From: Bacteroidales bacterium
Lineage (GTDB): Bacteria > Bacteroidota > Bacteroidia > Bacteroidales > UBA12077
Length of the DNA: 48,987 bases
Assembly: GCA_028282585.1 (NCBI GenBank)
Contig: JANQHR010000058.1
Location: 1 to 48,987, forward strand
Reading direction: 5' to 3'
The notes below the pieces were generated by a model that worked only from the letters and a program-made list of their open reading frames with translations, did not search any database and was not told the DNA's origin. Numbering within the stretch: the first letter of the stretch is position 1; each line of letters starts with the position of its first letter. Made by a program: the position numbers and the translations under genes. This document shows positions 355-17,873 of the stretch, piece after piece.

Positions 355-509
355 TATCTCTATAAATTAATTGTAAAATCCTTAAAACGTTAAATTAATT
401 ATTAAATGTAGCATATTTTTAGGGAAATATTAAACGATTTACAAGAAATGCAATCTTAAAAATTAAAGAAAATAATATGATTAAGTAAGTTATTTTACTA
501 ACTTCAACT

Positions 510-1265: not shown

Positions 1266-1636
1266 TTTTAATATAGTTTCGATACGTATTAACTAAATGG
1301 ATTTTCTAGTTGATTATTTATAATTTTCATTATAGCATTTATTGATAAACCCATTTCAATATACTTTTGAATCTGTTCTCTAAAAGGATCAAGTCCCCTG
1401 CCCTTTTTGTTTCCACTGCCTTTAGGTCTACCTAATATCTTCCCTTGCGATTTAGCGGCAATTAAACCTTGTTTTGTACGCATGTATATATCGTTATTTA
1501 TAGAATTTAATAGATTGCAATAATGCTCTTTGTTATTTCTTTCAAGCTGATTATTAAAATAGACCTCTTTTCCAAATTCTACAACTAAAGCAGTCATCAC
1601 TCCAATAATAACTCCAATATAGATTTCTTTTTTCAT
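1244..1636 (-). pseudogene. Chimeric ORF: hydrophobic N-terminus fused to C-terminal remnant of a serine resolvase (E-helix + HTH), frameshifted near end
   Basis: ORF 1289-1636 contains RTKQGLIAAKSQGKILGRPKGS...GLSINAIMKII; a shifted frame continues NTYRNYIKTKLLTEY* (HTH recognition helix-like); no catalytic YxRVS domain. Confidence 0.65.
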
Positions 1637-1735
1637 AATGGTTAATTAGATAAGTTATGTAAATATGATTTCAATTTTAAAATATTTAAAACTTTAATTC
1701 CATTAAGTAGATAGTAATTATACATTAAAAAACCA

Positions 1736-2695
1736 TTAATCCTTTTTATGGAATTCTCTTCTAATAACTGAAAACTGTTGATCTATTTCAGACATGAGTT
1801 TGGAAGAATGAGCAAATGAATTAAGGTCAGATTTAAGTATATTTTTCCAAGCATTAAAATCCTTCAATTCATGACTATCACTTATTTTTTTAATAGAATA
1901 TATATTGTTAGAATTAATTTGCTTTACTTTACATCTATCCTTCTCAAATATAATTTCATTGCTTATCAAATAAATAATATCAATTCGCTTTGGATCATAC
2001 TTCTTATTATAAATATTTTTAAAGTTAAAAATTGGAACAAATGCAACATAATATAAATCAGGAGTGTTTTTATTATCAATGAAAATAACTGAACAATCAT
2101 ATAAAATATATGATTTACCCATGTATTCTATTACTGCACCATTCTTAAATATTCTATTCAGTTCATCACTAATCCAATGTAATTTATTTTTCCGTTTTTC
2201 TCTTAAAGAAGTATTTTCATATAAATCATTAATTAAATCTATTGGTTGTTCAATCCATTTAAGCATAAAGGGTCCTGCAGTGCTATGAAAGTTTGGATGA
2301 GTTTGATAATTTCTAAAGTTTCTTATATGATTTAAGTATTCATTATTAGTAACTTCAAAATAGTTTTGATCCTGGAACCAATCAATAAGGTTTTTTAAAT
2401 TCCTTCGCTTTTCACCTTTTTTAGTTTTTTTAACCCAATTTTCTTCTGTTAATTCAAAGTACCTTATTTTTAAAGCCATTTCAAAAATTTGCCATGCTTT
2501 AGAAGCCGCAACATCGCAAAATTCATATTCATAATAGCTGTGAATTAATAAATTTTCTACTACTTTAAAACTTTTCTTAACATCATCTGGAACTTCATCT
2601 TTAAAATAAAATTCTGGAACAATGTTTTTATTGAAAGACTCGAAATCATCAGTTCCTCCCCATGGTTCCCATCTAGGATCTTTTGTAAATTTCAT
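1736..2695 (-). CDS. HEPN-like domain protein
   Basis: FEMALK upstream helix and Rx4H motif RNYQTH in a helical N-terminal half. Confidence 0.55.
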   Translation of the reverse strand: MKFTKDPRWEPWGGTDDFESFNKNIVPEFYFKDEVPDDVKKSFKVVENLLIHSYYEYEFCDVAASKAWQIFEMALKIRYFELTEENWVKKTKKGEKRRNLKNLIDWFQDQNYFEVTNNEYLNHIRNFRNYQTHPNFHSTAGPFMLKWIEQPIDLINDLYENTSLREKRKNKLHWISDELNRIFKNGAVIEYMGKSYILYDCSVIFIDNKNTPDLYYVAFVPIFNFKNIYNKKYDPKRIDIIYLISNEIIFEKDRCKVKQINSNNIYSIKKISDSHELKDFNAWKNILKSDLNSFAHSSKLMSEIDQQFSVIRREFHKKD

Positions 2696-2735
2696 TTGTA
2701 GTAACGTTTTTCTATTCTATTAACATTTCAATAGA

Positions 2736-5213
2736 TTAAAATTCTTTCCTGCTAAACTTAAATTTCAAAGATTTTCCACGATATTTTGTTTCCATTTCTT
2801 TAAAAAACAATTCTAATCTTTGCTCTGTAATTAAAGGAAAAGGTTTTAAATCCTTTTTATGAATTTTTGAAAACAGTCTAAAGATTGAGCTATAAAACGA
2901 ATTTGGATCCTGTTCAATGAATTTATTATTCTCCCTATAGAAAGAGTATAGTCTTACTATAACATCTTCCGGAATAAATAGAATATTGCCTTTCCATCTA
3001 AATCTAAATTTAACTTTTTTGTAGAACGTTTCATATTTACTAAAATCCATGTTTTGTGAAATAATTGCATAGGTCTTTAAATTTCCATAAAATTTAATTT
3101 TATCATTTCCCTTAAGTTTATTAATATAATGTCTATGCTTTTCAGGTTTTTCATTTAGTTGATATCCATCAGTATGATTGCTGAATTTACAATCCCAAGC
3201 CATACAATATTTACTTGGCGTTTTATATTCTCTTATTGATACAATACCATCAGGGGCTTTAATTCCAATGAAACTATCTCCTAATTTATCTCCAAGCTTA
3301 AATATTTCATGTAAAAGGTTATATATATCCTTTTCGAAATCGTTATGATCATATTCATCATATTTATCTAATATATTGGTATAAGATTCATAACCCTTTC
3401 TTAAGATTCTCTCATTCCATTTATCTTTTTGATATTTTAATATGTTTTGAAAATCATTGTTTAAATTTTCTGTTTCTGCAGATTTTATGTATAATTCCAC
3501 AAGTCCTTTACACGAAAAGTTTCTTTCTTTAAGTTGTTTATTTAACGCATTTTTATAGCGACATAGAATAACTAATAATGGATTCCCACTTTCTTCAAAA
3601 TGCGTTAATAATTTAACTGGTGGAGTATCGGAAGATACATAAACAGAAAGATTATCATGATTATCATCTAAAATTTCAATAATAGAGTGTTTCTGCTTAG
3701 CTATTTGTATATTGATGTCTGAAACATTTAATCCACTTCTTTTTAATAGATTATAAACAAATCTATGAGCGCCTTTTTTATTAATTTTAACATCAAAATA
3801 CCTCCCTTCGATGTATAAATCATTTCCACATTTAGGACAAGCGTTACTCTTATCCCAAGTCTTATTTCGACATGATTCACATACTCTTTTTGCCTCCTTT
3901 TGTAATTTTTGAAGAATCTTATTTTCGATTAATTCTAAAAGCAGTTCTTCTACATCTTGTGATATTTGATTTACAAGAATTGTTTTTTTATCTAGAATTT
4001 TGGACAATAGTCTTTGTTTATCTTGTTTAGAATTATTAGGTTTAAGCCATTGATTTAATATAACTCCAAATTTATCTTCAAATGATTTTGAAAACTTTTC
4101 CAAGTCATTGCGAGTAATATTTTTGTCTACTATGGTCAGACGATGTGTTCCCCAAATCGTTTCGTAAACATTAACTTTTATAGTAAGTCCATAAGAAGTG
4201 AATGTAAAATTTTTAAATTCTGAAAAATCATTTAGTTTAAGTGTACCCCTTCTTTTAAAGTCTGCTAAAACCGGGATAATATCATTTTTATATTGTTCAT
4301 CGGTAACTCTAATCTGCTTTGCCCAATTGCTATCTTTAAAACTTGCATCTACAATTTTAATATCTTTTGATTCGTTTTCATCAAGTACTAAATTGAAGAA
4401 TCTTACAGGATCATATGTAAATTCATTACGTTTATATGATATCCGATTTTCTAATTTCCTAGAAAAGTAATTCCTTATTTTGATTGATTCATCCTTTGAC
4501 TGAACATTAATCATTAACTCCTTAGTTTTTGGATCAAGTGAGATTAATCTATAAACTCCAGAAACAGTGCTAATGTTATTCGGAATTGCTACAGCGACTT
4601 TATCTGCTGTTTCTTTAAGAATTAAAAAATACCAAAGCTTAGTTCCTTTATAAGAAAATCTATACTTATATTCTTTCTTTTGTTTATCAATTCGTTTTAA
4701 ATAATATGTTAAGGGTTTTATGAATTTTATTATATTTTCATAATCTTCGTCACTAATATTCTCACTTAACTTATATATAAATCCCTTACCCAGCTTTTGT
4801 TTAAGTAAATATAAGAAAAGACCTTCAAGCCTTTCTTTCTTATATAGCTCAAAAACTTTGTCAATTACTTTTGATTTATCTGGATTACTTTTAGCCCAAG
4901 TTATGTTATATAACTCAGCAATACCTTTAGGATGTTTAAGAGAAAAATCATGTAAACATAATACCAAAATAGAGAGTTTTGTGTTGCTTTTTAGAACAGT
5001 CGTCAACTTAGCATCTTTGTCATAAGAATAATTAAAATGCTCAAATAAACTAGTGAGTGTCTTATAGCTAAATAATTTTAATCCCTTGATAAACTTTTCT
5101 TTGTAAATTTCATCCCACCTATCACAGTATGAGTCAATATTTACTTCAATGTTTTTCCAGAAATACCTTTCTTCTCTTGAAAATAAATCGGTTTTTAACT
5201 TTTTTGAACTCAT
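2736..5213 (-). CDS. Large protein with Zn ribbon and C-terminal FokI-like PD-(D/E)xK nuclease domain
   Basis: CESC...CPKC; FEKDIYNLL...GDKLG...APDGIV...WDCKFS...GYQL...HRHYI parallels the FokI cleavage domain (GKHLGG..KPDG..VDTKAY.GGYNL..MQRYV). Confidence 0.65.
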   Translation of the reverse strand: MSSKKLKTDLFSREERYFWKNIEVNIDSYCDRWDEIYKEKFIKGLKLFSYKTLTSLFEHFNYSYDKDAKLTTVLKSNTKLSILVLCLHDFSLKHPKGIAELYNITWAKSNPDKSKVIDKVFELYKKERLEGLFLYLLKQKLGKGFIYKLSENISDEDYENIIKFIKPLTYYLKRIDKQKKEYKYRFSYKGTKLWYFLILKETADKVAVAIPNNISTVSGVYRLISLDPKTKELMINVQSKDESIKIRNYFSRKLENRISYKRNEFTYDPVRFFNLVLDENESKDIKIVDASFKDSNWAKQIRVTDEQYKNDIIPVLADFKRRGTLKLNDFSEFKNFTFTSYGLTIKVNVYETIWGTHRLTIVDKNITRNDLEKFSKSFEDKFGVILNQWLKPNNSKQDKQRLLSKILDKKTILVNQISQDVEELLLELIENKILQKLQKEAKRVCESCRNKTWDKSNACPKCGNDLYIEGRYFDVKINKKGAHRFVYNLLKRSGLNVSDINIQIAKQKHSIIEILDDNHDNLSVYVSSDTPPVKLLTHFEESGNPLLVILCRYKNALNKQLKERNFSCKGLVELYIKSAETENLNNDFQNILKYQKDKWNERILRKGYESYTNILDKYDEYDHNDFEKDIYNLLHEIFKLGDKLGDSFIGIKAPDGIVSIREYKTPSKYCMAWDCKFSNHTDGYQLNEKPEKHRHYINKLKGNDKIKFYGNLKTYAIISQNMDFSKYETFYKKVKFRFRWKGNILFIPEDVIVRLYSFYRENNKFIEQDPNSFYSSIFRLFSKIHKKDLKPFPLITEQRLELFFKEMETKYRGKSLKFKFSRKEF

Positions 5214-5340: not shown

Positions 5341-8300
5341 TTATTTTTTTACTTGTGAATTATAATGCTCGTATATGTTTCGCAAATAATCAAATCCTGC
5401 TTCGCCATGAAGGAGACAAATTTTATCAGCTAATTCTTTTTGATCATTTTTGTAAATAACTTCAACAAGTCCTTCTACCTTACCTTTTGAAATATCGTAT
5501 GTTATTTCATTAGAAAACAGTTCAACAAGTATATTAGCAACTCTCTCAGTATTGCTATCAATATGAATTCCTAAATATTCAATTACAAAATACTTATCAT
5601 GTTGCTCTAGATATTTTATTGAAAACAGAATCCATTCATAGATTTGATCATCTAAATTCTCTATGTTTTTTATCCATTTTAAGCAGCCAGACAGAATAAA
5701 CTTGTGCAATTCAGGATTAGATAGGTCTTTAGAAAAATCATACAGTAAATTCCACAAAGGTTTGATTTTTTCAATTTCAACTTTTCTTAACGGAGAATCA
5801 TGCCGCCAAAAGAAATGAATGATGTATGAAAAGTGTTCTTTCTTTTCTATTTTTAATATATGTTTAAAAATTTCTTCTTCAAGTTCAAAACCCTTAAGCT
5901 CAAGCACAAATGCTATGCATATATGATTAATCAAATTATCAATAACCTCTTGTCTTTCATTTTTAAAATCATGATTCAAACCTTTAATTACATGACCTTT
6001 TTCTCTTAAAAGATTTAAATGATGCTTATATGGTCTACTATTATAAAATAGATAACCACACATTGCGGCATTCCAATTTATTTCATTCTTTAAACTAAAA
6101 ATCTTATCAAAATTTTCTAAAAACCAATCTTTATTAAGATATTCAATATTTGGTAAGAATTGCCCTAACACAAAATGTAATAATTCATTATTTTCATTTG
6201 TATTTAAAGCTTTTTCAATATAATTTATTATATCTTCATCCCATTTATTATTCTGTTTGTACTTTTTCAAACTAAAATATATTAATGAAGAATAAATTTT
6301 CCCACGGTTATTATTTAAAACGGACATCGATAATTCCATCATTTCAGTTATTTCAGAAAGATCTTTATCTAACATATAAAACATCAATTGTTTTATAAGG
6401 TCAAACAATTCTGATTCATATTCAACAGTATCATTTTGAATTACTTTAGTTAAAATACCAATGCTGTAAAAGCAAATTTGCGAATTATAATGATGTTTGA
6501 TATTATCACCATTGTTGTCCCAAAAACTATCAGACTGTTGTATCTTTTGAATAATACTAAAAACATTAATTAAATTAAATTCTTTTTCGAACTTCCATCC
6601 TTCATATATTCCTCTGCACCAGCTATACTGAAAGTGTCTCTGTGCATTTATTATTTCATTATTATTTCCATTAAATCTATTTATATCATTTGAGATTACA
6701 GATGAAACCATATCTGCGAATCCATCTAGTGTTGGTCCTAGAAAATCTTCTTTTTTCTTGGATAATACGTCAAATTCACTTATTATATCTTTTAATTCCA
6801 TATTATTAACTTCATCAAAAGTATATGGTGAAATATTCCCGTATATACTTTCATACCATGAATCGAATCCTGGGTGTCTAATTGGAGTAGAATCTCTCTC
6901 TTCATATTTCTGCATTAATTCTTTAACCTCTGGATTTTCTAATGTTTCTAATGCAGTCAATATTTCTCTTTTTTGCCTTGATATAATATCTTCATAGTTT
7001 TCAATGGTTTTCGGAATCTTATAGTTTATTTGATCTATCCATTTTAATATTAAGCTAACTTCATCATCCAAGAAATCTTCGGTATGGTTTTTTATCAATT
7101 CATAGATTTCATGCTTGCAGGTTCTATTATCTAAAGGATTATCATTCCAATTAAGAAATAAGCTTTTATGTTCATAATTACAGTTTATTGCATAGATTGC
7201 TAAACGATAAAAAATGTCAAAATTTGAATTAAATAATAATTTTATAATTTCCTTCTGCTCATTGTTAGTCAAGCTGTTAATTGAATCCCTTACAAAATAA
7301 ATTAACTGACATTCATAGCTATAAGGTATAGAAGTTTGATTATGATCTTCGATAGCGGGTAAAGTGGAAACACTAAATAAACTATTGTTTAACCTTAATA
7401 ATTCTTCCATAAAGTAAACTGCCAATTTTGTTCCATCTATACCACAATTTTTCAATAATCTATCTCTATCATCATTTAGCGTGCTCTGCAACGTTCCATG
7501 TTTAAAGACTGAATTAACTGTTATTGGTTCTGAATCGTTATTTTTTTGATAAGTAAAAACTATACTTAAAGAAATTAATAATAAATCTTTCTGATTCTCA
7601 GTTATAAATTTTCTAAGAATTAGCTTGTTAAAATCTCCAGCAATTAAAAGAGTCTCCCAACTAGTATGGAAAAATTCAATTATATATTCAAAGTGTCGAT
7701 TGTCTAAATATTCACTTGGTATGTTGGAAATAATTTTTAATAATGAATAATCTGTTCTATAGTTTTCTATTCTTTTCCCTTTATCATTTCTGAAAAGTGA
7801 AATTGCATCTATTATTAATAATAGAATATTTGTAATCTTGGGGCTGGGATTATTAAAATTTTGCTGACTAACCTTCTCTAAGTAAGTTAAAACGCTCCAA
7901 AAAGGCATATAATAAAACCCTGGATTCTCCTTGGATTCTTTTGGATATGGATTTTTATCACCCGCAAAATATTCATTCTCATATAAAATTTCTAACCATT
8001 CCACTGATTTTAGATTATTAAAGAAATATGAATATCTTGAATCAAGCGTTAATAAATTTGGTAAAGATTTTATTAATGAACTCGAAGGTGCATTATTATT
8101 AATAATTATATCTAATCTATCTGCAATAGAATAATAATTTCCAATTAATCCTTCTAGAATATCTAAAAAATCCTCCCATAAACTATTAAATTCATCAATA
8201 TCTCTAGGTGATTTCCACACACCATGTCTATGTGCAAATGAATGGAATTGTTTTGCAGTCTTATGCCATTTTTTTGAAAAAGCAGTGTCTTCTTTAATTC

Positions 8301-8562
8301 CAAGTGCTCTCTTTATAGATTCGCTATGAGTTACTTGAGTAATACGTCTGCCACATTCATTGCAAGGTTGACTATCTTCATTATTTACAGGTGATAAAAT
8401 TTCTCTTAAACCTGATTCAATTTCTCTTGAAAGATGTCCTAATAAATAAGGTTTTGTAGTTAGATCTTGATTAAATATTTGAAGTGCATCATTAAAAAAT
8501 GCTGCAATTTCCTTACCAATTACCTTTAATCCATTGTATATGGCTAACTCTCTTGCATCCAT
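5341..8562 (-). CDS. Large alpha-helical protein with possible HEPN-like N-terminal domain (putative defence protein)
   Basis: 1073-aa ORF; N-terminal GHLSREIESGLRE...FHSFAH, CNEC; remainder helical-repeat-like; no Walker A seen. Confidence 0.5.
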   Translation of the reverse strand: MDARELAIYNGLKVIGKEIAAFFNDALQIFNQDLTTKPYLLGHLSREIESGLREILSPVNNEDSQPCNECGRRITQVTHSESIKRALGIKEDTAFSKKWHKTAKQFHSFAHRHGVWKSPRDIDEFNSLWEDFLDILEGLIGNYYSIADRLDIIINNNAPSSSLIKSLPNLLTLDSRYSYFFNNLKSVEWLEILYENEYFAGDKNPYPKESKENPGFYYMPFWSVLTYLEKVSQQNFNNPSPKITNILLLIIDAISLFRNDKGKRIENYRTDYSLLKIISNIPSEYLDNRHFEYIIEFFHTSWETLLIAGDFNKLILRKFITENQKDLLLISLSIVFTYQKNNDSEPITVNSVFKHGTLQSTLNDDRDRLLKNCGIDGTKLAVYFMEELLRLNNSLFSVSTLPAIEDHNQTSIPYSYECQLIYFVRDSINSLTNNEQKEIIKLLFNSNFDIFYRLAIYAINCNYEHKSLFLNWNDNPLDNRTCKHEIYELIKNHTEDFLDDEVSLILKWIDQINYKIPKTIENYEDIISRQKREILTALETLENPEVKELMQKYEERDSTPIRHPGFDSWYESIYGNISPYTFDEVNNMELKDIISEFDVLSKKKEDFLGPTLDGFADMVSSVISNDINRFNGNNNEIINAQRHFQYSWCRGIYEGWKFEKEFNLINVFSIIQKIQQSDSFWDNNGDNIKHHYNSQICFYSIGILTKVIQNDTVEYESELFDLIKQLMFYMLDKDLSEITEMMELSMSVLNNNRGKIYSSLIYFSLKKYKQNNKWDEDIINYIEKALNTNENNELLHFVLGQFLPNIEYLNKDWFLENFDKIFSLKNEINWNAAMCGYLFYNSRPYKHHLNLLREKGHVIKGLNHDFKNERQEVIDNLINHICIAFVLELKGFELEEEIFKHILKIEKKEHFSYIIHFFWRHDSPLRKVEIEKIKPLWNLLYDFSKDLSNPELHKFILSGCLKWIKNIENLDDQIYEWILFSIKYLEQHDKYFVIEYLGIHIDSNTERVANILVELFSNEITYDISKGKVEGLVEVIYKNDQKELADKICLLHGEAGFDYLRNIYEHYNSQVKK

Positions 8563-8630
8563 AAACTATACGATCTGATAAAGTTATAGACATTGAAATT
8601 AAACAAAAAGTAGATAAAATGAACAAAAAG

Positions 8631-8891
8631 GAGTAGATAAATTAGCTTTATAAATTTATAAAAGAAGTAGATAAAGGTCCAGTATATGTGATTATTGAAT
8701 TGTAAAACTGTAGTTTAATAATGATATTAAATTGGACAATTCTTCTTGTGCTACTATATATCTTCAATATCAAATTGGACAATTTAACATATCTCTAGAA
8801 ATTAAGAAAAATTGTTGCAACAAAGAACTAATATAAGGAAGCTAGATTTTATGTTTTTTTCATGTTTGGATAAACTAACTTATCTTCCACA
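8631..8891 (-). mobile_element. Transposon-like end, copy 1 (Tn7-like architecture)
   Basis: Minus strand begins TGTGGAAGATAAGTTAGTTTATCCAA; related 20-mers at 8866-8885, 8775-8794 (16/20 identical), 8732-8751; colinear with 16151-16410. Confidence 0.7.
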
Positions 8892-8969
8892 AATGTCAAT
8901 CAAATTTCAAATACTCAATTCTCAGAGAGTTATTGTATTAATAAAAATGATTCTTTAAAATTATTTAAA

Positions 8970-9566
8970 CTATTCTTGTTTTATAAAATTAATTCTTTGG
9001 TCATTCAATTTAGGATTAAGGTTAGTCTTTTTACTATTAAAAGCATAATAAACCGTTGCAAGTAATATTTTTATATTAAACTTTAAGGACTTTTTTCTTA
9101 CATAAAAATTATCAAATCTAATTTGTAAGTGCTTATCTAGTTGACCTTTTTTTAATAGCCAGATTTGTGCTAAACATGTATTCCCAGGTAAAACAGAGCA
9201 TCTTTTATCATAGTTTAAATCTTTTAGTAATTTCATTGGTAAAGCTCTAGGTCCAACAAAACTCATTTTGCCTATTAAAATTAAGAAAAGTTCCGGAAGC
9301 TCATCTAAATGGAACTTTCGAATAAATCTTCCGAATCTATTAATGCGATCTTGTTCGAAGAATACTCTTCCTAGTTCAGTACCAGATTTCATTGATTTAA
9401 ACTTGAAATGAGTGTATTCCTTTTTACCCTTTCCTACTCTTTTTGAGATATAAAATGGTGGGAATTCAATTAATACAGAACAAAGAATTAATAGAAATAG
9501 CATTATCGGTAGTAATACTATTATCAATATAAGAGAAAGCAATATGTCAAATATTCTAATTGCCAT
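8970..9566 (-). CDS. Monotopic phosphoglycosyl transferase (bacterial sugar transferase, PglC/WbaP family)
   Basis: RIFDILLS, KFKSM, GRFIRKFHLDELPEL..GKMSFVGPR, PGNTCLAQ; start better placed at ATG 9566 overlapping the MurD-like stop. Confidence 0.9.
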   Translation of the reverse strand: MAIRIFDILLSLILIIVLLPIMLFLLILCSVLIEFPPFYISKRVGKGKKEYTHFKFKSMKSGTELGRVFFEQDRINRFGRFIRKFHLDELPELFLILIGKMSFVGPRALPMKLLKDLNYDKRCSVLPGNTCLAQIWLLKKGQLDKHLQIRFDNFYVRKKSLKFNIKILLATVYYAFNSKKTNLNPKLNDQRINFIKQE

Positions 9567-10998
9567 GTATAAGCTCATTAACATATTTCTTAAATAAATT
9601 ACCTCTTTCAAACATATCAGTAAAATATGGTGCACCACTGCATCCAGAAGAAAGCAATAATGTACCATTTTCATCCTGTGCCTTTTTTAATCCCACTGAA
9701 GTGGCTTCCTTTAGAGAATCAACTATAGTATAATTATCATATTTCAAATTAGATAATAATTTTAGAATTATCTCAGAAGTACTATCATTTCTATATAAAA
9801 CAACATTTATATTGCTTTGAACTAATCTATGGGATAACTTTTCAAAGGAAAGATTTTTGTGACCACCACCACCTATAATTAGTGTTATAGGTAATTTATC
9901 GCATGATTCTATTGCGAACATTACTGATTCTGGCGTAGAAGCTGCTGAATCATTTATTACTGCAAAATTAGAGTTCGTATTTAACAACTCAAACCTATGT
10001 TCTAAACCGTTATATGAATTTAAAGCCTTTAAAAGCAAATTTTCATTTAACTCAATGTTTATATAGAATTCTTTTATATAATAATATGCTGTACATATAC
10101 TGGCAACAACTAATTCAAAATGATGAGATACTCGTAGAGTTGTATTTAATTGATTTACAGGTGCTAACTTATAGAAATCACCATTTTGGTTTAATGTAAT
10201 ATATCCATCTTTAATAAAACATACAGCGAAGTAATTTGGCAAATCATTGTCTTTCAATTCTTCACTAGTGAATAAAACTTTCTTAGATTTAGTAGTTAAA
10301 CCAGCTATTCTGTTATCATTTAACGGAAGAATACAATAATCATCAATATTTTGATGTTTTAATATGTTTTTTTTATCATCAAAATACTCATCAATATCAT
10401 CATAAAAGTTAAGGTGATCTTCAAAGAAATTGAGCCAACATGCTATATTTGGTGACTTTTTATGTTTATTAAGTTCTCTCAACTGCCATGAAGACATTTC
10501 GAGAACAAAATCATTGGCTTTTCCTAAATAACTCAAAGGTGAAACACAATTATTACCTGCTGCAACACTATTTACTCCTAAGAATGATAATAAATGATTT
10601 GTTAAACCAGTAGTATAGCTTTTCCCTTTAGTTCCTGTGATGCCAATATATTGCTTATTATTTAATTCTGAAAAAATACCAATAGGACATTCCACAACTT
10701 TACCATTCTTTAAAGCATTCTGTATATAATTATTCGAATCTTTTATGCCTGGATTCTTGATAATAATATCGTGATTTTGAAAATCAGTTTCTCTATGTTT
10801 CCCTAATACTAAAGCTTTTGGAATATCTTTTACAAGTTTTAATGATTCTCTTAATGATTCTTCATCTTTAAGGTCTGTGATAGTTATTTTTGCACCATGT
10901 TCATAGGCAAATCTAGCGGATTCAACACCGCCACCTTTTGTACCTAATCCCATGATTAGAACTTTTTTATCTTTAAAATCTGATAAGGATTTAATCAT
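9556..10998 (-). CDS. MurD-like amino-acid ligase (divergent, outside dcw cluster)
   Basis: GLGTKGGG, NPGI, ITGTKGKS P-loop, LEMSSWQL, DHLNFY, GLEHRFE, INDS, LLS..ERG. Confidence 0.85.
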   Translation of the reverse strand: MIKSLSDFKDKKVLIMGLGTKGGGVESARFAYEHGAKITITDLKDEESLRESLKLVKDIPKALVLGKHRETDFQNHDIIIKNPGIKDSNNYIQNALKNGKVVECPIGIFSELNNKQYIGITGTKGKSYTTGLTNHLLSFLGVNSVAAGNNCVSPLSYLGKANDFVLEMSSWQLRELNKHKKSPNIACWLNFFEDHLNFYDDIDEYFDDKKNILKHQNIDDYCILPLNDNRIAGLTTKSKKVLFTSEELKDNDLPNYFAVCFIKDGYITLNQNGDFYKLAPVNQLNTTLRVSHHFELVVASICTAYYYIKEFYINIELNENLLLKALNSYNGLEHRFELLNTNSNFAVINDSAASTPESVMFAIESCDKLPITLIIGGGGHKNLSFEKLSHRLVQSNINVVLYRNDSTSEIILKLLSNLKYDNYTIVDSLKEATSVGLKKAQDENGTLLLSSGCSGAPYFTDMFERGNLFKKYVNELIHGN

Positions 10999-11005
10999 TC
11001 CTATC

Positions 11006-11980
11006 TTAAATTACACCAAATAAAATTTTGTCTAACGAATTAACTGAACGATAACTACTTAATCCATTTGAGTATAAATCAAATATTTTCTTCCCTAATA
11101 ATTTATTCTCATCTGAATAACACTCATCAGCGACACATTTACCACATGAAACAGTGTTAAAGTCGGTATTAACGTCAAATAATTCCGCTTCTATTCTACC
11201 CACGAATCTCTGGCAGGCGTAAATTTTTTTATCACTCGAAATTAGAATGGTCTTTTCTCCTGCATTGCACATAAATTCAGGATTTTCTAAACCTAATAAT
11301 AGTCTATGATGACCACCTAATAAAATATTGTTTTGTTTTGCCAAACTGTATGCTTCTTTTATAAGATTATATTTTAAGTCATTAGACAGTGGATTGTCTG
11401 GGTCATATAATAAGGAAACTGAAAGATCATGAATATCTAAATCACTTTTTATATAAAGCATAAAATCATTAAGTCTATTTACGGTATAATCATCTAATAC
11501 CATATTGATATAAACTGGCATATTCAATGACTTTAATACTTTTATTCCTGATACAGTTTGTTTAAATGTATTTTGTCCATTTCTTGATATTCTCCTCTTA
11601 TTATGTACTTCTTCTATGCCATCTAAAGAAACTATATGAATAAGTCTGTTTTTATGCGAAGATTTTACTAATTCTAAAAGTTCTTTATTTATGAGTGTCC
11701 CATTACTATTGATGATTATCTTACCATTTTTAAAGCGATCTAAAAATGCATTTGATAATTCTAAAATGAAATTAATATCAAGATATGGTTCTCCACCAAT
11801 AAATCTAATTTCAGGATCTTTGTAATAATTTTGCTCATCAAGATTATCCATGAATTTATTTACAACCGAACGTATATTATCACGATCACACTTCTTTATT
11901 CTCTCAGTATGTGGAATATAACAATACGTGCATTCACAATTACAGTTTTGAGTCGTCATTAAATAAAGTCTAGTAATCAT
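11006..11980 (-). CDS. Radical SAM protein with SPASM/Twitch-like C-terminus
   Basis: CNCECTYC, GGEP, SLDG, CNAG...YAC...CGKC...C; likely start ATG 11980 overlapping the upstream stop. Confidence 0.85.
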   Translation of the reverse strand: MITRLYLMTTQNCNCECTYCYIPHTERIKKCDRDNIRSVVNKFMDNLDEQNYYKDPEIRFIGGEPYLDINFILELSNAFLDRFKNGKIIINSNGTLINKELLELVKSSHKNRLIHIVSLDGIEEVHNKRRISRNGQNTFKQTVSGIKVLKSLNMPVYINMVLDDYTVNRLNDFMLYIKSDLDIHDLSVSLLYDPDNPLSNDLKYNLIKEAYSLAKQNNILLGGHHRLLLGLENPEFMCNAGEKTILISSDKKIYACQRFVGRIEAELFDVNTDFNTVSCGKCVADECYSDENKLLGKKIFDLYSNGLSSYRSVNSLDKILFGVI

Positions 11981-12794
11981 ATTCGTATCCTCCCCTGCAA
12001 TCAAATTCAGATATTCTTTCTGGTAATGATGCTTTGCAAAACGAAGCCTTAATTCCAGCGTTTTGAAACCTTTCTGACGTTTGTTTTAATACTTTTAACC
12101 TGTAATCAATATATGGATGCGTTGGCACATCAGATAATTCGGGATAATACTGCATCATGTTATCAATCAAAGTAGTTGATAAATGCTTCTTCATATTGGA
12201 AAGGATTTTGGATGAAATTCGTAGTGTTTCCGCAGTAATAGCACTAGGTTTACATTCATACAACCAATCAACTAATCTTTCCAGTTCTTTGCTATCCGTA
12301 ATCCCTGGTATAATCGGATCAATTTTAACAACTGTTTTTAAGCCTTCAATCTTTACAAGTTTTTCTATTAATTCTTTTCTTTCCGTTGCACTTGGTGCAT
12401 TTGGTTCTAATTGCTTTGTTAAATCATCATTTAAAGAATTAATTGAAACTGCTACAAAACTGTTTTTCTTATTCCTAAATAAGTCTATATCCCTTAACAC
12501 CAAAGGACTTTTAGTAATTACAAAAAATGGTATGTTTTTATATGAAAGTGCAGATAATATCTTTCTGGTATATCCTTTTTCTTTTTCTTCATAATCATAG
12601 CAATCTGTCCAGGGCGATAGGTAAAACGGATTATTATTCGAATTTAATGAATTTATTTTAGCTATTTCTTTATCTATATCGATGCCTGAATTAAGATCTT
12701 TGGTTTGAGATATACAATATATACAGTTAAACGAACATTGAGTATATACATCTATTTCATTATGAACTGGACATTTATTTTCGTATTTAGGCAT
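11970..12794 (-). CDS. Radical SAM protein, SPL/Rv2578c-like family
   Basis: YTQCSFNCIYC, TDCY, ITKSPLVLRDIDL, LEPNAPS..ER, PIIPGITD. Confidence 0.85.
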   Translation of the reverse strand: MPKYENKCPVHNEIDVYTQCSFNCIYCISQTKDLNSGIDIDKEIAKINSLNSNNNPFYLSPWTDCYDYEEKEKGYTRKILSALSYKNIPFFVITKSPLVLRDIDLFRNKKNSFVAVSINSLNDDLTKQLEPNAPSATERKELIEKLVKIEGLKTVVKIDPIIPGITDSKELERLVDWLYECKPSAITAETLRISSKILSNMKKHLSTTLIDNMMQYYPELSDVPTHPYIDYRLKVLKQTSERFQNAGIKASFCKASLPERISEFDCRGGYEYDY

Positions 12795-12797
12795 GAT

Positions 12798-13601
12798 TTA
12801 ATCAATTAATTCCGGTCTATATTCAAAATGCATAGTATCGTAGTGATACCATTTTCCACCCCATATAAAACCATGTTTTTCAAATATATTAACAATCTGC
12901 AAAGGTATTTTATTTTTGTATTTAAACTCCTTTTTAGAATCAATATCCCATTTCCAGTAATTAGAGTATTCAACGTTTATGTCGATAGCAATTCCAAAAC
13001 TGTGAGCACTTAATCTGTTTGTGCCACTAATAACACGCCATTTAAACGTACCTGCAGGCTTTATAACAAACTTTTTAAGTTCATCTGGCAATGTATCAAG
13101 TTCTTGCGATATCTGTTCTAACTTATTATGAATCCCGTTTATTTTTGTTACTAATAGTTTAGAACTATCAGAGTTTGGTAACCAAATAATTTCAACAAGA
13201 TTTTCTTTTACTTCTTCTTCGGTATTTCCGTACATCTTTTTTAGAAAAGCATCATTTCTAATTCTTCCAGGATCATAATTTAAAGATAATATGTCCATAT
13301 AATTTGGATCAGAAGGATATTCATAAAAAAACTGATCTTCGATATCGGGAAAATTTAGTAGCGAATCATGTGATTTAGTAAGTATTTTGTCATCAAATAT
13401 CATTGTAGTGCTATCAGTCCATATTAGCTGATTATCTTTAATTCCTAGAATAAAATCTGGATATGCCTTTTTTAGCTTATTTTCAATGCTTTCTATCCTA
13501 CTTAACTCTTTTGTTGGTATTTGTATGTTTTTTACTTCTTTTTGCCTACAACAGGTTAAAAACAGCAATAAAATAGATAATAATATGAATAACTTTCTCA
13601 T
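12798..13601 (-). CDS. M15 family Zn peptidase lipoprotein (VanY/CwlK-like)
   Basis: Signal peptide with Cys; R...SAHSFGIAID...WGGKW..YDTMHFEY. Confidence 0.9.
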   Translation of the reverse strand: MRKLFILLSILLLFLTCCRQKEVKNIQIPTKELSRIESIENKLKKAYPDFILGIKDNQLIWTDSTTMIFDDKILTKSHDSLLNFPDIEDQFFYEYPSDPNYMDILSLNYDPGRIRNDAFLKKMYGNTEEEVKENLVEIIWLPNSDSSKLLVTKINGIHNKLEQISQELDTLPDELKKFVIKPAGTFKWRVISGTNRLSAHSFGIAIDINVEYSNYWKWDIDSKKEFKYKNKIPLQIVNIFEKHGFIWGGKWYHYDTMHFEYRPELID

Positions 13602-13604
13602 TTT

Positions 13605-15068
13605 CTAACGAATGTAATCTTTACTTCTTCTTTTTAATAAATATTCAGGTTTGGGTTTCACAGGATTCCATAAACCAATTTTTTTAACTAAATCATAGTT
13701 ATCCAAATCAAGAATCTTCTTATAAAATTTTTGCCATTTATCTTCTCTTAATAAATAATATTCACCCTGCAAATGCTTAAGATTAATAAGATCTTCTTCA
13801 TCCAAGTATTTCTTAAAATAGTAGTATTTGACATTTGAAGTAATTCTCCAAACAGTCTCATATTTTGTTGAATCAATAGGTTGCCAATTGGTTGCATCAT
13901 AATCAGAATAGATTATAACAATTTGAGCCAAAGCTTGATGTGCAATAATAAGTTCAGCTTCTTTATCTTTCAAATATGAATTCACATTATCCATAGTAAT
14001 GAAATAGCTTCCATATGGCGGATCAAACTTGTTTGGGTTATATGATTTGAATGAAAAAGCCGATAACACTATTAGACAACCAATAAGCGAAATCTTAATA
14101 TAGTTAGGAAATAGCTTTACTAAATAAGGAATAGCTAGAACAGCTATCAAATTAAATGCAAGATAAAACCTAAAACCAATACTTGCTTTTGTAAATGTGT
14201 ATATAGGCAAGCTTAATACCATTAAAGTAGTAATCAGAAATTTACTAGCATCATCAATTTTTTTGGTCTTTATAAATTTAAATAGCTTTATTACTAAGAA
14301 TACAAGAAAAGCTATATAAAGTAGTATTGTTTCAACTTTCCAAACAATGGACATTTTACTCCATCCAAAAAAGTCAATCAGTTGCAATGGCGGAATATAT
14401 AAACTCTCTGATATTAAATTGGAGAATCTTTCAAAATCTGCAATATGAATAATTCCAGGTAATAAAAAAGCTATCAATAAAGCAAGTGCAACAAATGGCA
14501 ATAATAACTTGAATTTAAATCCTTTTAGAAAACCAATCAAAAGTATAATTACAGATATTCCAGCAATCATCCTATGCGCCATAAATCCAAGTAAAAAGAA
14601 AACCCCAGTCCATATCAATTTTCTTTCAGCTAAGAAATATAAAAGCCATAAGAAAAATATTACACCTAGCAGATTCTTCGGAAACTGTGCAGTGAAATAA
14701 TAAAAGGTTGGACTAAATATAAAAAAGGCACCAACTAAGAAGGATGTAAAAATATTATTTGTTAGTTTTTTTGAAATGAAGAAAGCTGAAACCGTTAATG
14801 TTCCTGATAATACAGCACTACCAATTTTAAATGCGAGTATGTAATCTCTAGCTAAATAAGATAAAGTTATGTAATATGGATAAATTAAAGAATAATCAGG
14901 TGAACGCATAGCTCCCTTCTCAATGAAAGTATAAGCTTGCATTATGTAATAATATCCATCCCACCCATTTGCAAATGGAGTTTGATTTAATGCAATGAAT
15001 TGCAAAATAAACGAGATAAGAAATATTACAGGTAATGAAATTTTTATTAAAACAGACTCTTTAATCAC
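13605..15068 (-). CDS. Polytopic membrane protein, GT-C (ArnT/PMT-like) glycosyltransferase-like
   Basis: About 10 hydrophobic segments; first loop NGWDGYYY acidic motif; soluble C-terminus. Confidence 0.55.
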   Translation of the reverse strand: MIKESVLIKISLPVIFLISFILQFIALNQTPFANGWDGYYYIMQAYTFIEKGAMRSPDYSLIYPYYITLSYLARDYILAFKIGSAVLSGTLTVSAFFISKKLTNNIFTSFLVGAFFIFSPTFYYFTAQFPKNLLGVIFFLWLLYFLAERKLIWTGVFFLLGFMAHRMIAGISVIILLIGFLKGFKFKLLLPFVALALLIAFLLPGIIHIADFERFSNLISESLYIPPLQLIDFFGWSKMSIVWKVETILLYIAFLVFLVIKLFKFIKTKKIDDASKFLITTLMVLSLPIYTFTKASIGFRFYLAFNLIAVLAIPYLVKLFPNYIKISLIGCLIVLSAFSFKSYNPNKFDPPYGSYFITMDNVNSYLKDKEAELIIAHQALAQIVIIYSDYDATNWQPIDSTKYETVWRITSNVKYYYFKKYLDEEDLINLKHLQGEYYLLREDKWQKFYKKILDLDNYDLVKKIGLWNPVKPKPEYLLKRRSKDYIR

Positions 15069-16069
15069 TTTTTACCTTCTTCAATATCTTTGATATAATA
15101 TATGTTGTACATTTCTATTTCCGTAAGTTGATCTGTTATATCATCATGAATGCCATTATACCAAGGTTTTGAACCGAAAAAATTCTGCATCTTTTCAGTT
15201 TTAAATTTATAGCCCTTTCTAGCATAAAACTGATTTCGAATGTAAGTTAAATCCTGCTTATCAATAATTTCTAGGTCTGTTTCATCAAATTTCTTTTTTT
15301 GCCCTAATCCATGAATTATTTCAAAAAGATCTACATTAATTTTATCTAGAAATTCATCAAAATAAATAGGTCCATTTTCACCATAAGTACTATAGTGATA
15401 TGCATCGACAGAGTAAAACTTTCCATTTATCGTTAAAAATAAAGTATCGTTAGCTTTCTTATCGAAATGCCAGCTTCCTTTAACAATAAATCTATTTGAT
15501 TTTTTAACATTCTGTAAACTTGTATCTATTTGGTCAAGCCTACGCTGATGTTCATCATTCCATTCTTTAATTTCTTCTTCTGACATTTTTTCTTCCTCTG
15601 ACCAGTGTAATCTATGACCTTCACCTACATCTCTTCTTTTTAAATCATATTCTGTTATGTCACTATCATAAATTCTATAAAAATTAAAAGTTTGATCCGA
15701 TAAACTAACTGTTATTGAGTCCTTAGGATTTTTTATTTTTCTATAGGGATCCAAATGCTTTTCATTAATATATTCAATTAATATGTAGCTCATTAAAGCA
15801 TCTGTTAATCCTTTAAAAATATTTAATTCAGTTTCTGTTGCTTTACTTAAGCCAATATCGCTAAAATAAATTGATTCAAAAGTTTCATAATTGCTTTGAA
15901 TTACATTCGGAATCTTTTTTTTCTGATTTTCAATTGCTTTCTTATCAATTGTAGGAGTTGCTTTTACTTCTTCTGTTATTGCCTTAGCTGTATCGCTTTC
16001 TTTTTTTTCAGTTTTAGAGTTGCAGCTGATTAATAATAATAAAGCTAGAATGATGCTTAGATTTCTCAT
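15065..16069 (-). CDS. YARHG-domain lipoprotein
   Basis: Lipobox LLISC; C-terminal IRNQFYARKGYKFKT..MQNFFGSKPWY..LTEIEMYNI. Confidence 0.85.
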   Translation of the reverse strand: MRNLSIILALLLLISCNSKTEKKESDTAKAITEEVKATPTIDKKAIENQKKKIPNVIQSNYETFESIYFSDIGLSKATETELNIFKGLTDALMSYILIEYINEKHLDPYRKIKNPKDSITVSLSDQTFNFYRIYDSDITEYDLKRRDVGEGHRLHWSEEEKMSEEEIKEWNDEHQRRLDQIDTSLQNVKKSNRFIVKGSWHFDKKANDTLFLTINGKFYSVDAYHYSTYGENGPIYFDEFLDKINVDLFEIIHGLGQKKKFDETDLEIIDKQDLTYIRNQFYARKGYKFKTEKMQNFFGSKPWYNGIHDDITDQLTEIEMYNIYYIKDIEEGKK

Positions 16070-16097: not shown

Positions 16098-16105
16098 CAA
16101 AAATA
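16098..16105 (-). promoter_or_regulatory. Bacteroidota -7 promoter box for the YARHG-to-PGT operon
   Basis: TATTTTTG (TAnnTTTG) about 30 bp upstream of ATG 16069. Confidence 0.45.
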
Positions 16106-16150: not shown

Positions 16151-16410
16151 TAGTAGATAGTTAGGTTGTTGAATTTAAAAAAGTAGTAGATTAATTGTAA
16201 AAATATTAATACATAGAATTGTATATCAGTTTTTTTAATTATGATAATGAATTGGACACTTCTACTTAAGCAACGATATGTCATCAGGTAAAATTGGGTA
16301 ATTTAGCTTTTCTTTAAAAATTGTGAAAAATGGTTATAACGAAGTTCCAATAAAAGAAAGCTAGGTTTTATATTTTTTTCATGATTGGACAAACTAACTT
16401 ATCTGCCACA
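16151..16410 (-). mobile_element. Transposon-like end, copy 2 (Tn7-like architecture)
   Basis: Minus strand begins TGTGGCAGATAAGTTAGTTTGTCCAA; related sites at 16385-16404, 16294-16313, 16252-16271; similarity to copy 1 stops exactly after ...CCACA. Confidence 0.7.
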
Positions 16411-16476: not shown

Positions 16477-16932
16477 TTACAAAGTTTTATATGACCACAT
16501 TTTATCTTGTCCGGGTTTACCTTCAAATAATTCAATCTTATTATCTTCGGGCATAAATACTACATCAGGAAGGTTTGTTGTTCCAAAGTCTAAATATTTT
16601 AGTGTTTCACTATCTGATGTATTCTTTAATTGATGCACTCCCTTTTCTCCAGCGGGAAATCTTAAAATATCGCCCGACTTAACTTTTAATACTCCACTCG
16701 CTGTTATCACTTCTCCATGCCCCTCAATGATATAGAAAATTTCCTCGTTGCAAGTATGATAATGGAGTGGCCAGTTGATTTTCCCCGGTGAAATTTCATA
16801 TATATCGCAATACATTTTGTTGACGTGTTCATCATCAATTATTCTTTTTCTGTTATGCTCTATTTCATCAGCCTTTGACCAACTACTCCATTTTACTTCC
16901 TTTTCATTGATTTTTAATGTCTTATGTTTCAT
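16477..16932 (-). CDS. Cupin domain protein
   Basis: PLHYHTCNEEIFYIIEG...GDILRFPAG...HQLKN. Confidence 0.9.
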   Translation of the reverse strand: MKHKTLKINEKEVKWSSWSKADEIEHNRKRIIDDEHVNKMYCDIYEISPGKINWPLHYHTCNEEIFYIIEGHGEVITASGVLKVKSGDILRFPAGEKGVHQLKNTSDSETLKYLDFGTTNLPDVVFMPEDNKIELFEGKPGQDKMWSYKTL

Positions 16933-17222
16933 AATATCTTATTTTCTGATTGTAAATTCCGTCTCACCCGGTAGCACCTTTGCCTTGTAGCTAACTGTTG
17001 TTAGCGCAAATATATCAAAAATGCCATATATTATTCCTTTAAAGTAAAATACTGTGTGGATTTAAATCAGCCTTCATTTTAATACGGCTAACAAGTATTT
17101 AATTATAAGGTGTTTATTTGCTTAGAATTGAATATTTAGTATAAATATGCTCTCCTACAGGTCATATACAAAATCGTATCAATTTCGTTTGTGAATAGCC
17201 AAATTTTGCTGGTTCAGGGAAG

Positions 17223-17873
17223 TTAGTTATGAACTGTTTTTGTTCTGTCAGGGTAAATCTTATCAAGTAAGTTTTCAGTTTTCAAAAATTCATAATACAC
17301 TTCTCTATATATACCCTGATATTTATCCTGAATCGAATTTTTTAACTCAGTAAATGTGCTTTTCAATTTTATAAAAATTATGTTCATTTCATGAAACCGG
17401 GTATCAACCGAAATTGATTTCTTGTTCAAATAAAATAGAGATCTATTCTGTATGCTTAAATTTTCTTTTGAATATTCCAGTAGATTGCATAAATACACAT
17501 TATTCTTTATTTCATCCATGTATGGTGCAATTGCCCTTAACAGATCTGTGTAAGAAACAGGTTTTGTTATATAGCCATCAGCACCCATGTTCATTGCCTT
17601 TTTTCTATCGTCTATTTCGGATAATGCAGAACAAACAATGGTTGGTGTTTGAAAATTTAACTTTTTTGCTTTCTCAATAAACTCCAATCCATCCATTACA
17701 GGCATTTTGATATCAGAAATTATTAAGCTAACTTTTTCCTTTTTCAATATTTCCAGGCCCTCAACCCCGTTAATTGCCTGTATCGTTTTGCCAAACGGAT
17801 TAATCAAGCAATCCAGCAGCAAAAAATTTGTTAATTCATCTTCTAATATTAGAATCTTTACCTCGTCTTTCAT
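17223..17873 (-). CDS. Response regulator receiver-domain protein with C-terminal extension
   Basis: ILEDE, SDIKMPVMDG, SAL, GADGYITKP. Confidence 0.85.
   Translation of the reverse strand: MKDEVKILILEDELTNFLLLDCLINPFGKTIQAINGVEGLEILKKEKVSLIISDIKMPVMDGLEFIEKAKKLNFQTPTIVCSALSEIDDRKKAMNMGADGYITKPVSYTDLLRAIAPYMDEIKNNVYLCNLLEYSKENLSIQNRSLFYLNKKSISVDTRFHEMNIIFIKLKSTFTELKNSIQDKYQGIYREVYYEFLKTENLLDKIYPDRTKTVHN

Follow-up and report, generated by a model that had tools for sequence, protein, structure and literature searches.

The 48,987-nucleotide stretch of DNA analysed here (the window: contig JANQHR010000058.1 of assembly GCA_028282585.1, from a Bacteroidales bacterium of the UBA12077 lineage) carries seven head-to-tail open reading frames (ORFs) at positions 8970-16069, all on the minus strand, with 16069 on the transcription start side. 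They encode a YARHG lipoprotein, a glycosyltransferase of the GT-C fold, an M15 metallopeptidase, two radical S-adenosylmethionine (SAM) enzymes, a MurD-type ligase and a phosphoglycosyl transferase (PGT). The last four genes are the invariant unit of this system: an SPL-type radical SAM enzyme, an anSME-like radical SAM enzyme, a divergent MurD paralog and a PglC-type PGT. We hold with moderate confidence that all seven genes form one operon of a rare accessory island, built in two layers, the four-gene core and a set of lineage-dependent genes. The function we favour, at about even probability, is the synthesis of a modified sugar, similar to a muramyl peptide, on undecaprenyl diphosphate; the GT-C enzyme would transfer this unit in the periplasm. 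Gene content, protein families, catalytic motifs, the GT-C fold, synteny, a natural fusion of GT-C and M15 proteins and the rarity of the system were all observed. The genes and the candidate promoter element are as follows.

16098-16105, minus strand: TATTTTTG box, candidate promoter element, a TAnnTTTG match 29 nt 5' of the first ATG
15065-16069, minus strand: gene 1, 334-aa lipoprotein with a C-terminal YARHG domain (Pfam; signal peptide ending in ...LLLISC)
13605-15068, minus strand: gene 2, 487-aa polytopic glycosyltransferase of the GT-C fold (Pfam EpsG) with a soluble C-terminal domain (Pfam, structural model, fold search)
12798-13601, minus strand: gene 3, 267-aa lipoprotein, M15_4 (LAS-type) metallopeptidase (Pfam)
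11970-12794, minus strand: gene 4 (core), 274-aa SPL/PA0069/Rv2578c-like radical SAM enzyme (Pfam, NCBIfam, alignment)
11006-11980, minus strand: gene 5 (core), 324-aa radical SAM enzyme with a reduced SPASM/twitch region (longest ORF, 332 aa, from TTG 12004)
9556-10998, minus strand: gene 6 (core), 480-aa MurD-type ATP-dependent ligase, the second copy in the genome (Pfam, TIGR01087)
8970-9566, minus strand: gene 7 (core), 198-aa small monotopic PGT, PglC-like, Bac_transf (longest ORF from 9674)

Operon layout and the four-gene core

The window corresponds to contig C27 in a draft genome of 4.9 Mb, which comprises 173 contigs and is 98% complete; the GC content is about 28% around the operon. 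As the first-pass annotation of this DNA had described, the seven same-strand genes either overlap (by 4-11 bp) or are separated by 7 bp or less. Calculated from the ORF coordinates, the YARHG and GT-C genes overlap by 4 bp, the GT-C/M15 and M15/first radical SAM junctions are gaps of 3 bp each, and the second radical SAM gene is followed by the MurD-like gene after 7 bp. At the junction of the two radical SAM genes and at that of the ligase and PGT genes, the overlap is 11 bp each when the internal start codons ATG 11980 (second radical SAM gene) and ATG 9566 (PGT) are used, both of which fit the N-termini of homologues; the longest-ORF starts would instead give overlaps of 35 and 119 bp. No terminator-like site was found on the minus strand within the seven-gene cluster. 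The annotation had also placed a single promoter box upstream. Indeed, the TATTTTTG box precedes the first ATG and matches TAnnTTTG, which we take to be the consensus of the Bacteroidota -7 element; the motif is not enriched across the window (70 matches against 85.5 expected), so the box alone argues only weakly for a promoter, and sigma-70-like sites occur at about the chance level (66 against 59.4 expected).

With the second radical SAM protein as query, we searched 60 relatives, some of them incomplete, namely 36 genomes of the same genus and 24 from other families of the order. It was present in two of the 36 congeners (G017 and G033) and in none of the 24 others. All seven genes occur in the same order in both genomes, at 59-88% identity in G017 and at 35-78% identity (complete genes) in G033, where the operon is split over two contig ends and a C-terminal radical SAM fragment is 83% identical to its counterpart in the window. 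The genes that flank the operon in these two genomes differ from those in the window. In G017 (L015, 7653-11380), four extra genes, for a 202-aa lipoprotein, a TPR protein and proteins of 346 and 190 aa, lie between the leader region described below and the YARHG gene. Over its first 36 residues, the 202-aa lipoprotein has 86% identity to the N-terminal end of the window's YARHG protein, which suggests a deletion or a recombination between signal-peptide regions.

In a database of 5.8 billion proteins, the second radical SAM family comprised 45 clusters (E <=3e-44), after which the scores dropped sharply to E 3e-14; metagenome-assembled genomes bearing the labels Desulfuromonas sp. SDB and Myxococcota are among its named members. 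In a sample of 400 genomes of the phylum, both this family and the GT-C family were absent outside genome G000 (0/400 each). Together, the rarity and the patchy, island-like spread suggest a strain-level surface trait. A profile scan of metagenomes kept 80 loci, 16 of which were analysed (L019-L034, E <=4e-21); the remaining 64 (L035-L098; at most 35% identity, all but about a dozen of them partial) match other radical SAM families and were excluded. All window proteins were then compared with 19 loci by local tblastn, and the neighbourhood counts obtained span perhaps five to six independent lineages. In all 16 family loci, the SPL-like gene is the immediate upstream neighbour of the second radical SAM gene; the immediate downstream neighbour of the second radical SAM gene is the MurD-like gene in all 12 loci that reach far enough, and the PGT gene follows the ligase gene in each of the seven loci that extend past the latter. 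For the eight family loci that were measured, the GC content ranges from 0.34 to 0.66.

The other three genes vary more. In L020, L021 and L022, whose core is about 45% identical to that of the window, the core is followed by YARHG proteins (in L020 each with two YARHG domains) and by a GT-C protein of 508 aa from the same family (tblastn E 1e-18 to 1e-25) that has the same FDGYYY loop. L022 also carries a DUF4846/M23 peptidase after the core; BLASTP revealed no kinship between this protein and the M15 protein of the window. The expectation that the genes would be found together elsewhere was borne out by the full set in G017 and G033, by the core in 16 metagenome loci and by the accessory families rejoined to it in L020-L022. 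The annotation's picture of one conserved unit therefore stands insofar as the genes are not chance cargo; it has to be narrowed in that only four of the seven are invariant and the M15 gene is lineage-specific. The YARHG, GT-C and peptidase genes are accessory but not random companions of the core.

A further gene was seen in the same lineage, in which L020 and L022 were scanned: an ArgD-like class-III aminotransferase precedes the core (L020:1310-2560 and L022:5751-6950). It is of the acetylornithine/ornithine type, scoring above the PRK01278 cut-off, and shares one base with the first core gene in L020 and one base at most in L022. This enzyme may be a supplier of a diamino acid or a mere housekeeping neighbour.

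The encoded enzymes

All family calls of the first-pass annotation stood up to Pfam, NCBIfam and fold searches. The Pfam scores are 56.5 bits for YARHG, 41.1 for EpsG (cut-off 30.1), 84.1 for Peptidase_M15_4 (cut-off 25), 39.5 and 59.5 for the two Radical_SAM matches and 146 for Bac_transf (cut-off 27), and the ligase combines Mur_ligase_M, MurD-like_N and Mur_ligase_C domains. Moreover, the ligase scores 298.8 bits with TIGR01087 (cut-off 211.95), compared with 407.5-407.9 bits for the housekeeping MurD. The normal murD of this genome lies between mraY and ftsW on contig C24 and its product is only 27% identical to the cassette ligase, which confirms the MurD-like gene as a true second copy. 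Aligned to E. coli MurD chains (E. coli numbering), the cassette ligase keeps K115, N138, E157, D182, H183, K198, R302, D317 and K348. The P-loop residue K115 as well as E157, H183, K198, R302 and D317, which we take to be the machinery for ATP and the acyl phosphate, are invariant in an alignment of nine sequences of the ligase clade.

The canonical D-Glu pocket, in which we place T321, S415 and F422, is not preserved: the ligase has the changes K319A, T321S, A414S, S415G and L416A, and F422 is replaced by M, L, Q or I, while K348 is kept. The loop that holds D-Glu additionally shows D417P, and the glycine-rich loop is two residues longer than in E. coli MurD. In an exhaustive search of 1.84 billion representatives, followed by a motif check on the best 150, the altered C-terminal loop (C-S/A/C/K-G-x-P) occurred in 15 of these 150, including the query and two fragments. 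One study places D182, K348, A414 and L416 next to D-Glu in MurD and reports that K319 affects chirality (PMC8788868). Given these positions and the altered loop, the cassette ligase probably accepts a different, or differently oriented, amino acid, as judged from its sequence. The residues of the Xanthomonas MurD2 chirality switch (E and R) are absent, and D182 and K348 are invariant in the clade. The longer glycine loop and the loss of K319 are common to a large subgroup of ordinary MurD proteins, one member of which is named as a Candidatus Kerfeldbacteria MurD, and the cassette ligase is closer to this GLGxHGGG subgroup than to the MurD of its own genome. Members of the subgroup (P0283-P0418) have a GLGxHGGG-type loop and NDT(T/A)AT replacing NDSKATN, and hence no K319; they include long forms of 600, 713 and 855 aa.

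The PGT is a small one-domain protein, 198 aa long from ATG 9566. Its best match in the PDB is PglC (8g1n, E 9e-22), which agrees with the earlier reading of it as a PGT of the PglC/WbaP type, and it contains DELP and GPRA motifs. We assume for both motifs the roles they have in monotopic PGTs, DELP presumably being the Asp-Glu dyad.

Both radical SAM enzymes carry the CxxxCxxC motif. In the first, SPL-like enzyme, its cysteines (C20/C24/C27) are invariant in an alignment of 14 sequences, as are three further ones (C8, C253 and C266), which could form a second cluster or a catalytic thiol set. No solved relative of this protein was found by phmmer, a profile search gave only spurious matches to PPR repeats, and in the ESM Atlas it falls into generic clusters labelled 'SPL family / DUF1848'. 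In the second enzyme, the motif (C21/C25/C28) is nearly invariant in 27 sequences and only three auxiliary cysteines are invariant (C246, C264 and C295, numbered on the 332-aa ORF). Its model has a mean predicted local distance difference test (pLDDT) value of 93.2, and the closest fold is that of anSME (TMq 0.70, E 3e-15), followed by CteB, ChlB, SuiB, SkfB and TigE, with viperins, MoaA and DesII ranking lower. The match begins at the radical SAM core, with neither an N-terminal extension nor an RRE domain, and the best NCBIfam match is the PapB ranthipeptide maturase, at 99 bits against a cut-off of 340. Given this resemblance to enzymes that modify peptides and proteins (anSME, CteB), the second radical SAM enzyme is likelier to act on the amino-acid part than to make a building block. 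The annotation had proposed that the two enzymes make or modify such a block; for the second enzyme, modification fits these matches better than manufacture. A predicted complex of the two radical SAM proteins obtained a score of 0.00 (mark 0.32), which speaks neither for nor against binding.

For the GT-C protein, an AlphaFold model built from 48 homologues reached a pLDDT of 91.5. Even though its Pfam label is EpsG, the fold supports the GT-C call made earlier, as all 18 PDB matches found by Foldseek at E <=1e-3 are GT-C enzymes (human and yeast STT3, PglB, DPY19, ALG12 and ArnT), with the best matches at E 1.5e-5 to 5e-4 and TMq 0.40-0.56. No Wzy or WaaL structure stood among the 50 fold matches listed, the presence of such structures in the library being unchecked. 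The soluble domain is small (about 140 aa). D37, within NGWDGYYY, is invariant in 48 sequences and lies in the first loop; it would be the conserved acidic residue of the first extracytoplasmic loop, the side of the membrane being deduced from a fusion with the M15 protein. This natural 738-aa fusion (P0059) joins the GT-C protein to the whole M15 protein minus the lipoprotein signal of the peptidase, from which it follows that the two are functionally linked and that the C-terminal domain of the GT-C protein and the exported peptidase share one side of the membrane.

The M15 protein has the sequences SAHSFGIAID and MHFE, presumably its zinc-ligand motifs. Several of its relatives are labelled CwlK L-alanyl-D-glutamate endopeptidase by the Joint Genome Institute (JGI), and no solved relative was found by sequence. 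Finally, the YARHG lipoprotein of gene 1 is 59% identical to its counterpart in G017 and 35% identical to that in G033. YARHG is an extracytoplasmic domain for which those who described it hypothesised peptidoglycan binding, a function that is unproven (PMC3355149).

The leader repeat and the surrounding island

The operon is flanked by a direct repeat of about 260 bp, the copies of which are 75-81% identical:

16152-16410, minus strand: leader repeat, upstream copy, 5' of the operon, with three TGTCCAAT-like boxes
8600-8893, minus strand: leader repeat, second copy, 3' of the operon and 5' of a Dsr1-like gene (8562-5341), found by repeat comparison

The first-pass annotation had taken these sequences for two transposon-like ends. 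This was refuted: the repeat is direct and not inverted, it exists in these two copies only across the 4.9-Mb genome, and no transposase or integrase domain was found in the ORFs scanned (up to 25936). A transposon or insertion sequence, which needs inverted terminal repeats and a transposase, was accordingly rejected, and no tRNA gene was found in the window. In the minus-strand sense, both copies end a few tens of bases before a start codon, and a third copy in G017 (L015:11138-11380) lies just 5' of the first gene of the enlarged operon. The most fitting reading of the repeat is an upstream leader, or promoter region, that has been duplicated. A structured RNA or riboswitch was rejected as well, since no Rfam match exceeded the gathering score (the sole hit was RT-2, with 17.9 bits against 40 and E 0.94); the predicted fold of the leader RNA is no more stable than that of shuffled sequence (z = 1.02). 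With regard to an invertible promoter, only short, imperfect inverted repeats were seen in the leader region. Each copy contains three TGTCCAAT-like boxes, which could be binding sites of a shared regulator, and a conserved four-codon mini-ORF (ATG AAA AAA AyA TAA). A cupin gene and a response-regulator gene are located just upstream (16477-17873).

Directly 3' of the operon, a 1073-aa ORF (5341-8562, minus strand) matches Dsr1 of PADLOC with E 7e-191, over model positions 320-1225 only. Its first 173 residues stand in place of the earlier part of the model; the ORF as a whole has no Pfam match and was not found in G017 or G033. The remaining left flank (1-5213) encodes DUF2971 and DUF4145 proteins and an 825-aa protein with a weak zinc-ribbon match, at 25-27% GC, and none of these proteins matched PADLOC at E <=1e-3. 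This flank looks like a variable or defence-type island.

Predicted pathway, competing explanations and known systems

How might these enzymes work together? We predict every chemical step from what enzymes of the MurD, PglC and GT-C families are known to do; all substrates, the sequence of cytoplasmic reactions, the acceptor and the role in the cell are likewise predictions. [quoted passage not shown] The two radical SAM enzymes would tailor this UDP-linked amino-acid sugar, the anSME-like one most likely by abstracting a hydrogen atom from the amino-acid part, which could lead to an epimerisation, an oxidation or a cross-link. The PglC-type PGT would then load the finished sugar-1-phosphate onto undecaprenyl phosphate, and a flippase encoded outside the operon would expose the lipid-linked unit, which the GT-C enzyme, resembling oligosaccharyltransferases and ArnT, could pass to an acceptor in the envelope. 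The wall-type metallopeptidase is predicted to work beside the GT-C enzyme, and the YARHG lipoprotein, a hypothesised peptidoglycan binder, would accompany both. At least one distant lineage has this accessory layer of GT-C, peptidase and YARHG proteins too, reassembled from other components. A more specific proposal, to which we give a rather low probability, is that the core is a second, MraY-independent route to a lipid-linked muropeptide, in which the PglC-type enzyme loads onto undecaprenyl phosphate a UDP-muramyl-peptide with its amino-acid part rewritten by the radical SAM enzymes, that the GT-C enzyme then employs this unit to link envelope proteins (such as the YARHG lipoproteins) or a glycan covalently with the cell wall, and that the peptidase makes or trims this link.

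Several observations weigh against the lipid-linked muramyl-peptide pathway. Its substrates, product and chemistry are predictions throughout. The operon encodes no flippase, second glycosyltransferase or sugar-nucleotide gene. The loss of K319 and the longer loop of the ligase, being common to ordinary MurD proteins, are no mark of a new substrate, and the proteins structurally closest to the second radical SAM enzyme act on ribosomal peptides or proteins, not on sugar-peptides. The M15 family, with at least 7986 clusters, is very large and of a general kind. Among the 88 clusters of the GT-C family, only four besides that of the window have a fingerprint, the length of the longest contig, in common with a radical SAM cluster, so that the family may work mostly without the core, a weak argument as the contigs are short. 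In L019, the GT-C gene directly precedes the core, with the M15 gene missing between it and the first radical SAM gene. In L026, a CocE/NonD hydrolase follows the PGT, and in L031 a C25 peptidase with a type IX secretion system (T9SS) sorting domain does so, in both cases with no recognisable GT-C or YARHG gene by the core within reach. At 27 bits, where the cut-off for PorU is 420, the C25 peptidase of L031 does not qualify as PorU. A 604-aa membrane-TPR protein of L031 was tried as a GT-C candidate and rejected, as it matched no GT-C profile (hhalign probability 0.3).

These distributions bear above all on the best-surviving alternative, which we nevertheless regard as unlikely: two unrelated modules would lie side by side, the core making a lipid-linked or soluble metabolite, and the YARHG, GT-C and M15 proteins forming an independent wall-remodelling or glycosylation set with a donor of its own. 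The scarcity of shared fingerprints, the generality of the M15 family, the lack of accessory genes beside the core in L024, L026 and L031 as far as the contigs reach, and the position of the locus in a variable island beside a defence gene would all fit such a juxtaposition. It is harder to reconcile with junctions that, throughout the seven genes, are overlaps or gaps of 3-7 bp, or with the YARHG, GT-C and peptidase families being rejoined to the core, in another order, in L020-L022. Chance adjacency arising twice is also unlikely for radical SAM and GT-C families that are each absent from the 400 other genomes of the phylum.

Two further explanations are less likely still, and equally so. 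According to one of them, the system matures a peptide or protein: the anSME-like enzyme, and perhaps the SPL-like one, would modify an exported protein such as the peptidase or the YARHG lipoprotein, and the ligase would add an amino acid to a peptide carboxylate. The closest solved relatives of the second radical SAM enzyme (anSME, CteB, ChlB, SuiB, SkfB and TigE) and its PapB match point in this direction, as does the peptidase or hydrolase gene that follows the PGT or GT-C gene in four lineages (M15, M23, CocE/NonD (S15) and C25). However, these hydrolases belong to four unrelated families, which leaves no conserved protein substrate, and the invariant PGT would be left without a role. A maturase system for ribosomally synthesised and post-translationally modified peptides was rejected in particular, as the enzyme lacks an RRE domain, the operon of the window has no intergenic room for a precursor-peptide ORF and the PapB score stays far below its cut-off.

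The other holds that the paralog is a MurD isozyme for a back-up or alternative supply of peptidoglycan precursors, with a radical SAM epimerase in a MurL-like part. The ligase does exceed the TIGR01087 cut-off with its catalytic residues kept, and radical SAM peptide epimerases exist, EpeE/YydG being among the weaker structural and sequence matches of the second enzyme. There is also a precedent in MurD2, which ligates L-Glu that MurL then epimerises (PMC8788868). Against this stand the normal murD between mraY and ftsW (407.5 bits), the D and K retained at the positions that are switched in Xanthomonas MurD2 (D182E and K348R), a partner that is a PglC-type PGT and not MraY, and the presence of the cassette in just two of 36 congeners.

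An anti-phage function, by a viperin-like nucleotide-modifying radical SAM enzyme or by masking of phage receptors through surface modification, is very improbable: the PADLOC models for prokaryotic viperins (pVip) match the second radical SAM enzyme (51 bits), the operon adjoins the Dsr1-like defence gene with its copy of the same 260-bp leader and the distribution is patchy and island-like, but the pVip match is restricted to the generic core of radical SAM proteins (residues 16-185) and scores lower than the peptide maturase matches, viperins rank below anSME and CteB by fold, the other six proteins have no PADLOC match, and receptor masking would be a consequence of the lipid-linked pathway and not a rival mechanism.

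The first-pass annotation knew of no described pathway with this composition, and we found none in curated families or in the open-access literature. NCBIfam holds no model specific for the radical SAM enzymes, the GT-C protein or the YARHG protein, and open-access full texts yielded no paper joining a Mur ligase or MurD-like protein with a radical SAM enzyme or a PGT in the sense sought. If the proposed tailored-sugar pathway is correct, an envelope pathway initiated by a PGT and completed by a GT-C enzyme has taken in two radical SAM enzymes together with a Mur-type ligase. This would be a natural case of peptidoglycan-precursor chemistry diverted to another product and a new substrate class for monotopic PGTs and bacterial GT-C enzymes. 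Two unassigned radical SAM families would gain a defined set of genomic partners, directly testable as four small co-expressible genes. The core is of interest in being small, sharply defined and spread across phyla. Plausible consequences, all predicted, include effects on phage or lysin sensitivity and the anchoring of envelope proteins; a wall-linking unit, if real, would represent a new class of chemistry by which diderm anaerobes anchor molecules to their wall, one that can in principle be compared with the T9SS linking sugar.

Polyprenyl-linked pathways for envelope glycoconjugates are known, and what is new here is an enzyme set without precedent. By analogy, the system resembles a hybrid of early peptidoglycan precursor synthesis and a lipid-linked glycoconjugate pathway of the PglC/PglB type. 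With the precursor pathway (MurC/D/E/F, MraY, lipid I/II) it would share a MurD-family ligase with its catalytic residues kept, the loading of polyprenyl phosphate after the ligase step and wall-type peptidases outside the cytoplasm. Unlike in that pathway, the ligase is a 27%-identical second copy outside the dcw cluster with an altered D-Glu-holding loop, a PglC-type PGT instead of MraY would do the loading, two radical SAM enzymes are present, and the set is confined to two of 36 genomes of the genus. Xanthomonas MurD2/MurL similarly couples a MurD variant to an enzyme able to rework the added amino acid. There, however, MurD2 is the MurD belonging to the pathway itself in species without D-Glu synthesis, and MurL is an ATP-dependent epimerase (PMC8788868). 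In the present genome, a normal housekeeping MurD exists, the cassette ligase has the canonical D182 and K348 rather than E and R, and its partners are radical SAM enzymes and a PGT; it was consequently not assigned to the Xanthomonas type.

The Campylobacter Pgl (PglB) and ArnT pathways likewise combine a small monotopic PGT with a GT-C enzyme, STT3/PglB and ArnT being the nearest structures to ours. The operon differs from them in having no cytoplasmic glycosyltransferases, flippase or usual tailoring genes for sugar nucleotides, in including a Mur ligase and two radical SAM enzymes, and in a periplasmic domain of only about 140 aa. The Wbp/Vim pathway for the T9SS linking sugar is similar by analogy only: it provides Bacteroidota with an amino-acid-bearing, lipid-linked sugar to which PorU, of the gingipain family, attaches proteins (PMC7468200), and in L031 a C25 peptidase that carries a T9SS sorting domain comes after the core. 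In that same account, the acyl-transferase-like VimA adds Ser or Gly to the amine of the sugar, and the genes involved are different (PMC7468200). Lastly, the second radical SAM enzyme matches anSME and the RS-SPASM maturases best in structure, and anSME also lacks an RRE domain. In contrast to them, this enzyme has only three invariant auxiliary cysteines, scores below the cut-off of every curated family and is always accompanied by an SPL-like radical SAM enzyme, a Mur ligase and a PGT, with neither a sulfatase nor a precursor peptide.

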